From contig JACPTC010000024.1 in the NCBI GenBank assembly GCA_016192985.1, forward strand, positions 1-55,337: a stretch of DNA of 55,337 nt. The letters run 5' to 3'. Made by a program: the position numbers and the translations under genes. The notes under the pieces were generated by a model. It had not been told where the DNA came from. It saw nothing but the letters and a program-made list of their open reading frames with translations, and did no database searches. Shown piece after piece: positions 18,375-55,095 of this stretch (position 1 is the first letter of the stretch; every line of letters begins with the position of its first letter). This DNA is from Candidatus Woesearchaeota archaeon (GTDB lineage: Archaea > Nanobdellota > Nanobdellia > Woesearchaeales > GW2011-AR4).

Positions 18375-18423
18375 TTTAAGCTATACAATCCAATTTTTTA
18401 CTCATTAAATGGGGCTGCCCGGA

Positions 18424-18545
18424 ATTTCATCAACCGTTTGCATTCGTCAAAAGTTTTCATTCGAGGGACTTTATGTCCCTACCAGTTTTCTTTTGGTCAA
18501 GCTTTTCTTTGCGAGGCTCTCTTGAGCGAGCAAAGAAAAGGTTGT
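18424..18545 (-). other. putative 122-nt intron in the T-loop (about position 59/60) of tRNA-Pro
   Basis: Flanks fold as T-stem CCCGG:CCGGG, 3' bulge ATT, 4-bp helix TTCA:TGAA, 5' bulge AAA, helix CAACC:GGTTG (relaxed bulge-helix-bulge). Homologous to the insert at 54788-55081. Confidence 0.65.
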
Positions 18546-18601
18546 TTTGAACCGGGGTCTTCTGGTCCCAAACCAGAAAGGATGTGTCCAAGCTACCCTA
18601 C

Positions 18602-18663
18602 AGCTTCATGCAGTGAGTTTTGTTGTGTTTTAATGTCACTAGTCCCATGCTTGGTAGCTTTCT
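18602..18663 (-). other. putative ~62-nt intron in the 5' acceptor stem of tRNA-Pro
   Basis: GGGGCT / insert / G is needed to pair with CAGCCCC. The junction is ambiguous by up to 3 nt because GCT is repeated at both ends. The intron 5' part AAGCTACC is complementary to the D-arm GGTAGCTT. Confidence 0.55.
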
Positions 18664-18861
18664 AGCCCCGCCTACGAGTATTAATACCTTGTTTTTAAAT
18701 CTATCGTTGGAAAGATAATTTTGAAGCAAATTCATAAAAATAAAACTGGCAAAGAATGTGGGCAAGAGATTAAAAAAGTTGTTTTAAAGATACCATAAAA
18801 GCCCATTTTGAGTTAACAGCTGGAAAATATCTTAATCTTTATAAATCATCATTAATTCTAC

Positions 18862-21483
18862 ATGGATATGGCACTAACAGAAGCGCAGAGGTTTCATTTA
18901 AAGAAGTTCATTAAGGAATTGGAACGGCATAGGGGCAGGCATACTGAGTTAGTCAGTGTTTACATTCCGAAGGATTATGATATGAACAAGATAATCAACC
19001 ATCTTGCTCAGGAGCAGGGTACAGCATCAAATATTAAATCATCAGCAACAAGGAATAATGTGACAGACGCCCTTGAAAGGATGATTCAGCACTTAAAGCT
19101 ATTCAAGACAACGCCAGCAAATGGGTTAGCTGTGTTTTCCGGCAATGTGGCTGAAAGAGAGGGGCAGCAAGACTTTAAGGTTTGGAGCCTAGAGCCGCCT
19201 GTGCCGTTAAAGACAAGGATTTACAGGTGTGACAAGGAATTTGTTCTTGATATACTAAGAGACATGCTTGAGGCTAAAGAGGTTTATGGATTGGTTGTCA
19301 TGGACAGGAGAGACGCCAATCTGGCTCTTCTCAAAGGAAAGACAATTATTCCAATCGTTAAAACTCATTCAGAGGTGCCTGGAAAATTTAAAGCGGGGGG
19401 ACAATGTCTTGTAAAAGGTACTTTAATTCAATCAACTGATGGCCTCGTCCTGCCAATTGAAAATTTTCATAATCCAAAAAGTGTCAAAAGTATGATTACA
19501 GAAAATTTATCAATGTCGGACTCAGCAATAGCTGATAAATGGAATGTAAATAAGGAAGAAGTTTACAAGATAATTACAAGATATCCTAGACTTGAAGTAC
19601 AATCCTCTAAAGACCACATATTTTTTGTCTCAACTCCAAATGGGCTTATTGAAAGAGCTGCTGAAGAGCTTAAAGTAGGAGATTTCTTAATTATGCCTGA
19701 AAAAATTGATATAAAGGGTGATGTACAGAGTATTAATTCTAAAAAATACTATAATTCATTTATAGTTACTAAAGAAGGTCAAGAACTTCTAAAACAAGCA
19801 CGTTTAAAAATGAAATCGCTTCAAAGAGAACTAGCTAAAAGAATTGGTGCAACACAAACAACAATCTCTTCTTATGAAATTGGCAAACTCCATGCTGAAA
19901 AAGAGCCGTTAAAGCGCTTATGCGAAGAATTAGGCATAGATTTTGAAGGATTTATACAAAAATACACTAAACAGCATCATCACCAGAATGTAAGTATAAG
20001 ATTACCTGAAACCTTAAATCCAGATTTTGCACAATTTCTCGGTTATTTTATAGGTGATGGCTGTTTAGAGACCGATAGACTTACGTTCTTCGAACAGGAT
20101 AAACAAGTTGCTTTAGCTTATAAAAAGAGGTATGAAAAATATTTTAATCTAAGAATAAGTTATCGTTTCAGAAAAAGTAAGAGTTATCATCAATTAAGAT
20201 TCACCAGTAGGCCGCTTGTTAGATTAATTATAAATGAATTTCCAGAAATTAGAAAAGCATTGGATACTGAGATTCCAGAAAAAATTCTTAAGTCAAAAGA
20301 TGAAGTAATTGCGGCTTTTCTAAGGGGGTTATTTGACGCAGAAGGGTATATCTCAGGAAAATTAGCTATTGGGATGAACAATAAAAAAATAATTCAACAA
20401 ATACAAATGGCTTTGCTTAGATTTGGAATAATATCTTCTATGCTTGAATATGACAACAAACAAAATCCTTATAGTAGAAAACATAGATTCACATTAGAAA
20501 TGTCGGAAAAAGAATCTTTAGAATTATACCAAAAGTTTATAGGTTTCTCGTCTAAAATGAAGTCAGAAAAATTAGAAACAGGCATAAAAAATAGAACACT
20601 TAGGAGCAATGTGCGACAGATTATTATTCCAGGTAAAATGATTGGTAAATTGCTAAAAGAAGCTGAGTATAGTTTAGGAAACTTCCGAGTTTCTTTGTTT
20701 TTTACAAACAAAAGAATGATGAGTAAAGCAGTTTTTTACAATAAGTTTGTACCTCAAATAAAAAATAGTAAACTTAAAAAAGAATTACTTAGAATTTATA
20801 ACATACCTATTTTGCCTGTAAAAATACATAAAATTGAATTTGTAAAAGAAAATATGGAGATGATTGACATTTCTGTAAAAGATAAGAGTTTTATAGCAAA
20901 TGGGTTAATAGTTCATAATTCAGCCCAAAGATTCCATCGCCTTATAGAAGGGGCAGCGAAAGACCATTATAAGAAAGTGGCTGAATATATGAAAGAAGCC
21001 TTTCTTAATATGGAAGGGTTGAAGGGAATAATTGTTGGCGGCCCAGGCCCCACGAAATATGATCTTGTTGAAGGTGGCTACATAACAAATGAAGTGAAGA
21101 AGAAAATAATTGCAATAAAGGATTTAAGCTATACCGGCGAATTTGGCCTTGAGGAGTTGCTTGAGAAAAGCCATGATGTTTTGGCTCAGGAAGATGTAAT
21201 TGAGGAGAAGAAAATAGTTGGCAAGTTCTTTGAGATGCTTGCAACGAAACAGAATATGGTTGCTTATGGAGAATCTGATGTAATGAAAAAGCTTAAAATG
21301 GGCGTTGTTGATATCCTGATTTTATCAGAAGACTTGCCTGATGAGAAAATTGAGGAGTTTGAGGCAACTTCAAAGCCAGTTGGAACAGAAATAAGGATTA
21401 TTTCAACGCAAACAAGGGAAGGAGTCCAGCTCCGTGATTTGGGAAAAGTAGCTGCTATTTTAAGGTATGAGGTTTACGTATAA
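18862..21483 (+). CDS. prf1: peptide chain release factor aRF1, interrupted by an intein
   Basis: Exteins: 181 aa ending ...GKFKAGGQ and 187 aa starting SAQRFHRLIEGAAK..., which rejoin as the universal GGQSAxRF motif. NIKS motif at TASNIKS. The true start may be the second ATG (18868), given the TATA at 18838-18845. Confidence 0.9.
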   Translation: MDMALTEAQRFHLKKFIKELERHRGRHTELVSVYIPKDYDMNKIINHLAQEQGTASNIKSSATRNNVTDALERMIQHLKLFKTTPANGLAVFSGNVAEREGQQDFKVWSLEPPVPLKTRIYRCDKEFVLDILRDMLEAKEVYGLVVMDRRDANLALLKGKTIIPIVKTHSEVPGKFKAGGQCLVKGTLIQSTDGLVLPIENFHNPKSVKSMITENLSMSDSAIADKWNVNKEEVYKIITRYPRLEVQSSKDHIFFVSTPNGLIERAAEELKVGDFLIMPEKIDIKGDVQSINSKKYYNSFIVTKEGQELLKQARLKMKSLQRELAKRIGATQTTISSYEIGKLHAEKEPLKRLCEELGIDFEGFIQKYTKQHHHQNVSIRLPETLNPDFAQFLGYFIGDGCLETDRLTFFEQDKQVALAYKKRYEKYFNLRISYRFRKSKSYHQLRFTSRPLVRLIINEFPEIRKALDTEIPEKILKSKDEVIAAFLRGLFDAEGYISGKLAIGMNNKKIIQQIQMALLRFGIISSMLEYDNKQNPYSRKHRFTLEMSEKESLELYQKFIGFSSKMKSEKLETGIKNRTLRSNVRQIIIPGKMIGKLLKEAEYSLGNFRVSLFFTNKRMMSKAVFYNKFVPQIKNSKLKKELLRIYNIPILPVKIHKIEFVKENMEMIDISVKDKSFIANGLIVHNSAQRFHRLIEGAAKDHYKKVAEYMKEAFLNMEGLKGIIVGGPGPTKYDLVEGGYITNEVKKKIIAIKDLSYTGEFGLEELLEKSHDVLAQEDVIEEKKIVGKFFEMLATKQNMVAYGESDVMKKLKMGVVDILILSEDLPDEKIEEFEATSKPVGTEIRIISTQTREGVQLRDLGKVAAILRYEVYV
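19405..20919 (+). mobile_element. 505-aa intein with LAGLIDADG homing-endonuclease domain and an HTH segment
   Basis: - Starts with Cys (CLVKGTLIQ) and ends with ...GLIVHN, followed by Ser+1.
- Block-B-like SSKDH.
- LAGLIDADG motifs FLGYFIGDGC and FLRGLFDAEGYI.
- Cro/C1-like HTH LQRELAKRIGATQTTISSYEIGK (about 19810-19950). Confidence 0.85.
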
Positions 21484-54536: not shown

Positions 54537-54633
54537 TTTATGTCAAGCAGTTACATTTGTTTATAAGTTTAATCGTTTTAAATTAAACCAAATCAACAAA
54601 TTTTATAAAGGTAAAGATACTCTTTTTCTATAT

Positions 54634-55095
54634 GCCGCGGTCGCATAGCCCGGCCATTGCGGTGATTTGCTGACAATTGTGAGCGAGGTAAATCTCATAT
54701 GTCACACAAACTGCAAGATTGCTAAGGGCTATAGCCTTGAACAATGGCTGTAAAGATCCACTGTCCGCAAGGATACGGGAGTTCAAAAACAACCTTTTCT
54801 TTGCTCGCAAGAGCCTCGCAAAGAAAAGCGTGACCAACAACGGTAGCCCGTTGACATCTGTGGGTTTCGCAACTTCGTTGCTCAAGCCCACGAAAATTCG
54901 TTGGATTAAGCAGTGAGATGGTGAGCGAGGTTCGACGAGCTCACCTCGCATGTCACGCGAAATCCAACTTGATTAAGACGTCAACTGACTTTGCAGTTGT
55001 GACCAAAAGAAAACGTGGGAGGGATTTTCTGATAAAATCCCTCAATAGAAATATCTTGGGAATGAAAGGGTTGTGTGAAAGTCTCCCCCGCGGCG
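54634..55095 (+). tRNA. tRNA-Ser: class II tRNA, probably tRNA-Ser(GCU), with three putative introns
   Basis: - Acceptor GCCGCGG pairs with CCGCGGC, plus discriminator G.
- D-arm GCA-TAGCCCGGCCAT-TGC.
- Anticodon stem GTGAT...GTCAC with loop TT-GCT-G (anticodon 54669-54671).
- Long variable arm T-GTCC-GCAA-GGAT-AC.
- T-arm GGGAG-TTCAAA|T-CTCCC.
- 462 nt minus inserts of about 27, 56 and 294 nt gives 85 nt.
- TTTTATAAAG lies ~27 nt upstream and a T7 run downstream. Confidence 0.65.
54788..55081 (+). other. putative 294-nt intron in the T-loop of the Ser-like tRNA
   Basis: Flanks fold as GGGAG:CTCCC, 3' bulge AGT, helix TTCA:TGAA, 5' bulge AAA, helix ACAACC:GGTTGT. The 5' and 3' modules are homologous to the tRNA-Pro T-loop insert. 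Confidence 0.6.

Follow-up and report, generated by a model that had tools for sequence, protein, structure and literature searches.

The question raised by this locus is why the T-loop intron of a tRNA-Ser gene reaches 294 nt, and what the block of helices within it represents. Positions 29/30, 59/60 and 3/4 are known sites of non-canonical tRNA introns, and eukaryotic tRNA introns span 6-133 nt (review, PMC4090602). The window considered here is the whole stretch of DNA that was analysed, 55,337 nt in length. Protein homology shows its source to be a Candidatus Woesearchaeota (DPANN) archaeon, the group that supplies the best named homologues of both MetRS and the neighbouring transglutaminase-domain protein. 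The window sequence is present in four groundwater metagenome runs (X1-X4), and a search among RNA runs recovered none that contains the locus. The protein encoded next to the tRNA-Ser gene is 689 aa long; an exact copy is not on record, and homologues were found. Orthologous tRNA-Ser loci (L096-L105) were collected via this neighbouring protein and then read. One of them, L100, belongs to another Woesearchaeota genome (GCA_016185915.1) and is the source of the orthologous tRNA-Ser intron used below.

The gene that hosts the block is invisible to standard tools in its unspliced form: neither ARAGORN nor Rfam finds it at 54634-55095, and together they detect no tRNA anywhere in the 55-kb window (1-55337). 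Removal of all three introns yields a perfect 85-nt cloverleaf, with a 7-nt T-loop (UUCAAAU), that ARAGORN reports as tRNA-Ser(gct). The gene is organized as follows.

54634-55095, + strand: tRNA-Ser(GCU) gene with three introns and an 85-nt mature product (ARAGORN after intron removal; orthologues L096-L105).
54665-54716, + strand: intron 1, anticodon stem 29/30, with a BHB-like junction (GCGG:CUGC, bulges UGA and AAG).
54725-54755, + strand: intron 2, canonical 37/38 (cloverleaf after splicing, BHB scan).
54788-55081, + strand: intron 3, T-loop 59/60, 294 nt (BHB scan: H1 5, H2 4, H3 6).
54777-54781/55083-55087, 54782-54785/55076-55079 and 54789-54794/55069-55074: helices H1, H2 and H3 of the intron 3 BHB, with bulges at 54786-54788 and 55080-55082.

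The three helices of the intron 3 BHB pair as GGGAG/CUCCC, UUCA/UGAA and ACAACC/GGUUGU (the last with one extra G), with a 5' bulge AAA and a 3' bulge AGU. The motif scores 15/15 in the scan and recurs in the MFE fold; as modelled, the host T-loop intron is a textbook archaeal BHB tRNA intron. Its 59/60 position is kept at eight orthologous loci (seven other genome types), with interiors ranging from ~20 to 294 nt: ~20 nt in L097-099, L102 and L104, ~140 nt in L096 and ~190 nt in L101 and L105. The interiors of the other orthologues are unrelated or only partly related to that of the window. The T-loop intron of tRNA-Ser(GCU) is shown by these comparisons to combine a conserved BHB with an interior that is free to vary.

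Intron 1 is more erratic, being short in L097 and L100 and missing from L104. The true anticodon loop, TTGCTAA, consists of 54719-54724 plus A54756, and in L104 the corresponding UUGCUAA is uninterrupted. A different heptamer, TTGCTGA, had been taken for the anticodon loop in a preliminary description of this DNA; it falls within intron 1, and it must be intron sequence because L104, without intron 1, reads UUGCUAA directly. The same description had noticed that the word GTGAGCGAGGT...ATGTCAC occurs twice, at 54679-54705 and 54921-54956. Both copies are present, but the first sits in the 29/30 intron rather than in an anticodon-loop intron, since the supposed anticodon loop is itself inside intron 1.

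A second tRNA gene in the window, tRNA-Pro(UGG), is also undetected by ARAGORN and Rfam. It has a T-loop intron paralogous to that of tRNA-Ser, and a ~62-nt intron in the 5' acceptor stem whose position is ambiguous (3/4 or 6/7). At least two functional-looking tRNA genes (Ser and Pro) are thus present in the window despite zero tool detections. Standard tRNA finders miss such genes entirely, and because they are blind to both genes here, tRNA counts of such DPANN genomes are likely to be underestimates, which matters when DPANN tRNA complements are judged. In the same region, the aRF1 gene (18862-21483, + strand) contains a large insert, presumably an intein, with matches to intein-containing proteins and to an HTH domain.

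The tRNA-Pro gene, the intron scaffold that it has in common with tRNA-Ser and the limits of the extra block are as follows.

18410-18669, - strand: tRNA-Pro(UGG) gene, with a paralogous 122-nt T-loop intron (18424-18545) bearing an empty site, plus the ~62-nt acceptor-stem intron.
54788-54837, + strand: left scaffold, common to the tRNA-Pro intron and the L100 Ser intron, with hairpin CTTTTCTTTGC/GCAAAGAAAAG.
54831-54837: TGACCAA, the duplicated target, left copy (the contig joint is ambiguous by 7 nt).
54838-54999: the insert, 162 nt, a mosaic of palindromic repeat units (A and B, with C inside B).
55000-55006: right copy of the duplicated target TGACCAA.
55007-55081, + strand: right scaffold, with hairpin GAGGGATTTT/AAAATCCCTC and the 3' half of the BHB.

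Alignment of the two introns, with Pro on the minus strand, matches 54786-54837 to 18548-18493 at 89% and 55000-55014 to 18499-18485 at 100%, with no Pro sequence between the matched parts. The proposal that the Ser T-loop intron equals the Pro scaffold plus one extra block at the Pro junction is borne out by these flanks. Left scaffold identity is 89% to Pro and 96% to L100 (2345-2510), though the protein adjacent in the window and L100 is only 68% identical, and it may be that the intron scaffold has itself spread recently or is under selection.

The block had been described as 169 nt long and bounded by an 8-nt direct repeat. That repeat exists, as GTGACCAA at 54830-54837 and 54999-55006 with a spacing of 169 nt. 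However, the empty site in Pro and L100 reads TTGACCAA, and only the 7 nt TGACCAA are duplicated; the match at the eighth base is coincidental, given that T stands there in the empty sites. The insert proper is 162 nt. The L100 Ser intron has the same scaffold and reads ..AAAAGCTTGACCAAAAGAAAAC.., a junction identical to that of Pro. Three empty sites with a single TGACCAA each are available in total: the orthologue L100, the paralogue Pro, and a related contig found in X1 and X3, in which 54830 is joined to 55000 with 7 bases ambiguous. The X3 contig continues beyond the joint through the Ser 3' exon, and over 105 nt of this 3' part only ~7 mismatches and 8 gaps are seen. It represents a fairly close relative with an empty site, as the Pro intron would differ far more. 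The earlier reading of the flanking repeat as a target-site duplication agrees with these single copies in L100, Pro and the related contig.

The block is single-copy within the window and is absent from all seven other orthologous genome types. The comparisons support a gain of the insert by the tRNA-Ser intron and not a loss by Pro; the empty sites of the orthologous L100 locus and the related contig speak against the converse possibility, deletion from the Pro intron. The insert begins with CAACGG..GTTGACATCT and ends with AGACGTCAAC..CAGTTG, and each end also forms a hairpin of its own. Subterminal inverted repeats (54845-54859/54976-54990, 15-nt arms, 80% identity) are weak and partly reflect these two end hairpins. 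The left end (54838) and the right end (54999) each recur elsewhere but were never seen together in one contig, and the contigs examined yielded no further full-length A+B that had both ends together with a target duplication of its own.

Every one of the perfect helices listed for the block in the preliminary description is present. For the 162-nt insert, the computed folding energy is -62.8 kcal/mol (z = -4.9 relative to shuffled sequences), and its reverse complement also folds (z = -5.65). Since both strands fold, the signal is that of palindromic DNA and is not strand-specific. In the ensemble, 50.9 pairs are expected within the insert versus 2.0 across its boundary, and the host BHB is untouched; the insert is, in this model, a self-contained folding domain. 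Rfam returns no family for it at the gathering threshold or at E<=10. Inspection for C/D or H/ACA boxes gave no usable arrangement, only an isolated CUGA in a region that is fully base-paired.

An intron within an intron had also been suggested, and in such a twintron the splicing endonuclease would excise the block first or separately from its host. Pairing is possible between the termini CAACGG and CAGTTG, a relaxed GUAG:UUGC candidate lies inside the block, and a BHB-like GUGA:UCGC arrangement surrounds the repeat designated unit C below. The BHB scan, however, finds none formed by the block's two ends, in contrast to the 15/15 motif of the host intron. GUAG:UUGC is the best candidate inside the block, with a total score of 11 that falls within the background of other scans (8-11; the real intron scores 15), and it does not lie at the block's ends. 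The candidate around unit C (bulges GAU and AUG) has the right topology and was rejected, as its H2 helix is lost when the 5' strand varies. RNA splicing, moreover, yields no target duplication. Nested splicing is highly improbable on these grounds. One-step excision of the whole intron is expected instead, because the insert pairs with itself and the exon-intron BHB stays intact.

The composition of the insert is more informative. It can be divided into units that occur independently of one another, a degenerate relative of one of which is found in intron 1.

54838-54893: unit A, with hairpins CAACGG-TAGC-CCGTTG and GTGGG..CCCAC; found alone in other contigs, where it starts exactly at 54838.
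54894-54999: unit B, with the 8-bp stem GTTGGATT/AATCCAAC and the terminal hairpin CAACTG-ACTTTG-CAGTTG; found alone at ~90% identity.
54909-54960: unit C, with its core at 54918-54956 and the form ..GTGAGATGGTGAGCGAG-loop-ACCTCGCATGTCAC; it sits within the unit B loop.
54677-54710: degenerate short copy of unit C within intron 1 (match to model R1, 14.2 bits).

A search for further copies, as the preliminary description had proposed, was productive for the parts: units A, B and C were each seen alone with unrelated flanks in contigs from the same aquifer. Contig depth in X1-X4 rises from ~10 in unique flank to ~100-170 in unit A and 200-400 in unit C, and loose contig ends are seen as well. 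On its right, unit B is followed by at least five different flanks, each of which breaks at 54999-55001; on its left, at least four different flanks occur. Unit C is absent from some A+B copies, which have GAA in its place. In a putative tRNA-Pro(GGG), a canonical intron with a good BHB (UUGG:CCGA, AACGG:CUGUU) has a copy of unit A as its 5' part; another copy adjoins the 3' end of a tRNA on the opposite strand; and a hairpin homologous to unit A occurs in the T-loop intron of L101 and L105. The sequence GAGGTAA flanking another copy of B was considered as a 7-bp target duplication and rejected, being a separate hairpin unit on both sides; a unit D flanks B' on both sides. A hairpin resembling the block's ends, CAACGG-TTTCGC-CCGTTGAC, is found in L042 (1491-1570), just past a stop codon and upstream of an RNA polymerase B gene. 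It is followed by two more hairpins, and the group looks like a REP-like or terminator-like cluster.

Unit C is the most widely dispersed component. A metagenome scan with the pattern TGGTGAGCGAG N3-22 ACCTCGCATGTC returned 60 loci in 47 distinct contexts, with Hainich and JGI groundwater sets among the sources. A scan of GTDB with GGTGAGCGAGGN7GAGCTCACC gave 34 chance matches only, in GC-rich bacteria, and scans of viral contigs gave one chance match in one case and zero in the other. The core is far more conserved than its surroundings, with an invariance that is partly forced by the search pattern. Four contigs break inside unit C, as assemblies do at repeats.

The contexts are diverse. Unit C lies sense-oriented in the Ser introns of L096 and L102, and antisense in the canonical intron of a tRNA-His(GUG) in L057, where it adjoins a CAACGG..CCGTTGAC hairpin like the block's ends. 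In L074 (1771-2451, - strand), a 226-aa rpS6e-like ORF contains unit C in frame (..TKNQSNGERGEPRMSQDLL..) within its K/E-rich tail. In L035 it occupies an AT-rich spacer ~90 nt upstream of the SRP RNA gene, on the opposite strand. Across the loci it caps host helices of differing yet complementary sequence (GGAUUUCAG/CUGAAAUCC in L049, GCUUGCGA/UCGCAAGC in L043). It also joins other units in intergenic mosaics, in either orientation, bounded by TTCAATCCG..CGGATTGAA (L072, L075, L047, L058). L075 has two copies (1-260 and 1081-1290) of an element of ~200-300 nt that carries unit C, and in copy 2 inverted terminal repeats (GTTATTATTTAGC/GCTAAAGTATTAC) are accompanied by a direct repeat of 9 bp (GTTTTACCG). 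The two carrier copies flank two small ORFs with an HHVN..KNDFS.W motif, and copy 2 is without ~85 nt of copy 1. In L053 (4930-5070; also L045, L054 and L055), unit C is part of a conserved, structured-looking non-coding stretch (GGGUACUUG..CAAGUAC..) that has no recognised RNA family.

The best explanation, to which we would assign a probability of about 0.6, is DNA-level insertion of palindromic repeat units of a MITE- or REP-like kind, tolerated as a passenger of the intron. In this model, 162 bp of DNA composed of short imperfect palindromes (A and B) would have entered the scaffold at a staggered cut, duplicating the 7-bp TGACCAA. Unit C, a ~40-50-bp palindromic repeat dispersed in many Woesearchaeota genomes, would have entered or left the unit B loop. 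The splicing endonuclease would then remove all 294 nt in one step, with the insert as a neutral passenger; because the whole intron is cut out, the insert is most likely harmless. From their discrete ends, many contexts, both orientations and nesting in hairpin loops, we infer that units A, B and C act in the manner of non-autonomous DNA repeats that move or recombine (the MITE, REP-BIME or RPE kind). The target duplication, the two orientations relative to host tRNAs and the in-frame copy in an ORF all suggest events at the level of DNA. The small mobile RNA element envisaged in the preliminary description thus survives insofar as its parts are mobile or dispersed, but not as regards mobility through RNA.

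The block could instead have been assembled without a transposase, as introns recombined or underwent gene conversion with one another, TGACCAA being left as a microhomology scar. Unit A, as the 5' part of a working-looking intron elsewhere (the putative canonical intron of tRNA-Pro(GGG)), makes such exchange an alternative source of sequence. The tRNA-His intron of L057 is made of the same kinds of units, and the scaffold is common to Ser and Pro and better conserved in L100 (96%) than the neighbouring protein (68%). DNA-level transposition of introns has also been described in Thermoproteales (PMC4090602). However, units B and C are not confined to introns but turn up in intergenic DNA and in an ORF, both orientations are found, and a host site duplicated cleanly over 7 bp would more typically result from insertion at a staggered cut. 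Exchange of this type is possible but clearly less probable than DNA-level insertion of repeat units. In order of likelihood, it is followed by an RNA function of unit C and, last, by the unlikely nested intron.

The structure of unit C bears on that RNA function. Two mutually exclusive folds fit the data. In fold (a), GGU / GA / GC..GC / GA / ACC, the helices enclose tandem G-A pairs, and in the window type they are Watson-Crick (GGUGAGC:GCUCACC); this fold is backed by the compensatory variants GGC:GCC (L096) and AGU:ACU (L072) and by loop inserts that extend the helix. Fold (b) pairs GUGA+GCGAGG with CCUCGC(AUG)UCAC, and it is the only one possible in the short intron 1 copies (L096, L102) and in contexts without the 5' GUGA. 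The + strand of unit C folds better than its complement in 37 of the 47 contexts, a bias that is only a hint because the constant core makes the 47 cases non-independent. Several known motifs were considered and rejected. For a k-turn (by eye), the 5' strand of the would-be C stem varies without compensation; for a C/D box, AUGGUGA does not qualify as the C box and the D box partner is missing. No match to a hammerhead or hairpin ribozyme core was seen by eye, the lower helix is too short for group II domain V, and a CRISPR repeat is at odds with a single copy per contig.

The conserved core and strand bias could point to an RNA or protein-binding function of unit C rather than to purely selfish DNA. 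The insert, or at least unit C, might then be a functional RNA module that, for example, binds a protein as a hairpin or stabilises the intron after its excision and circularisation. The core words of 11 and 16 nt are invariant beside variable loops, host helices vary yet stay complementary, two compensatory changes keep the GGU:ACC helix, and tandem G-A is favourable on the + strand only. The C/D box sRNA carried by the tRNA-Trp intron of Haloferax volcanii is a precedent, as a structured RNA within an archaeal tRNA intron. The present insert is without C/D boxes, guide-like single strands, an Rfam match or conservation among orthologues, the block being missing from 7/7 other orthologous genome types. 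The antisense copy in the tRNA-His intron, the translated copy in the ORF, the core invariance partly imposed by the search pattern and the coexistence of two exclusive folds also weigh against such a function, and we regard it as doubtful. It is similarly doubtful that unit C, and perhaps A and B, constitute an undescribed structured RNA module of Woesearchaeota that caps the helices of introns, leaders and spacers. Were this so, candidate roles would be a binding site for a lineage-specific protein or the stabilisation of excised circular introns, and T-loop introns would be evolutionary landing pads where such modules accumulate.

If the units are inserted DNA repeats, they can be compared with several known families. 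MITEs are known in bacteria and archaea (PMC10969869). Like the block, they are small, lack an ORF, show presence/absence polymorphism and have target-site duplications; TGACCAA occurs twice here and once at the empty sites. They also have (sub)terminal inverted repeats, which are clear in the related L075 elements, where the duplication is 9 bp long. The block differs in the weakness of its own inverted repeat, its composite nature and the lack of a second complete copy among those seen. The SM elements of Sulfolobus are archaeal MITEs.

Mosaics of REPs and BIMEs are known from bacteria, including REPs nested in longer palindromes (PMC2817692, PMC3733652). They resemble the present units as imperfect palindromes of 30-50 nt in high copy number and both orientations, forming mosaic clusters of different units and inserting at the centre of other palindromes. 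Here, unit C is found in 47 contexts and is oriented one way in the tRNA-His intron and the other way in the tRNA-Ser introns, and the mosaic has the form A+B(+C). The host, however, is archaeal, the GTAG or CGTC tag of REPs is absent from the unit C consensus, and the block has a 7-bp target duplication. REP-type elements normally make no target duplication, and the assignment to a MITE- or REP-type family is therefore mixed. Rickettsia palindromic elements (RPE), as cited in PMC3733652, insert in frame in ORFs; unit C is likewise read through in frame in the rpS6e-like gene of L074. RPE differ from unit C in sequence and lineage, and the copy in the window lies in an intron.

On the side of the host introns, tRNAs with multiple introns, introns at 59/60 and DNA-level intron transposition are already known (PMC4090602). 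The non-canonical BHB introns of Thermoproteales (Fujishima et al. 2010), as that review presents them, are similar in having multiple introns per tRNA with BHB junctions, positions at 29/30, 59/60 and 3/4, and near-identical introns in different tRNAs (here Ser and Pro). The present case differs from those in its DPANN lineage (Woesearchaeota) and its 294-nt intron. Growth by insertion of dispersed repeats with target duplication, as seen here, is not described for Thermoproteales in the review's account of that work. In the literature searched, no description was found of T-loop intron growth to 294 nt via nested repeat insertion, and neither Rfam nor the literature searched describes a widespread, highly conserved Woesearchaeota palindromic unit of ~40 nt.

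The locus may thus offer a concrete and datable case of archaeal tRNA intron growth by nested, dispersed palindromic repeats, from the ~20 nt of several orthologues to 294 nt. It also introduces a new Woesearchaeota repeat family for which a selfish and an RNA-level role can be tested against each other. Related elements, ~150-300 nt in length, occupy the TGase-tRNA spacer upstream of tRNA-Ser in L097-L101 and L105 and are absent from the window (54537-54633) and from L096. These elements consist of TTCAATCCG.. / AATAGGCGAGG..CCGAGCAC..GATTGAA units, which occur in either orientation.
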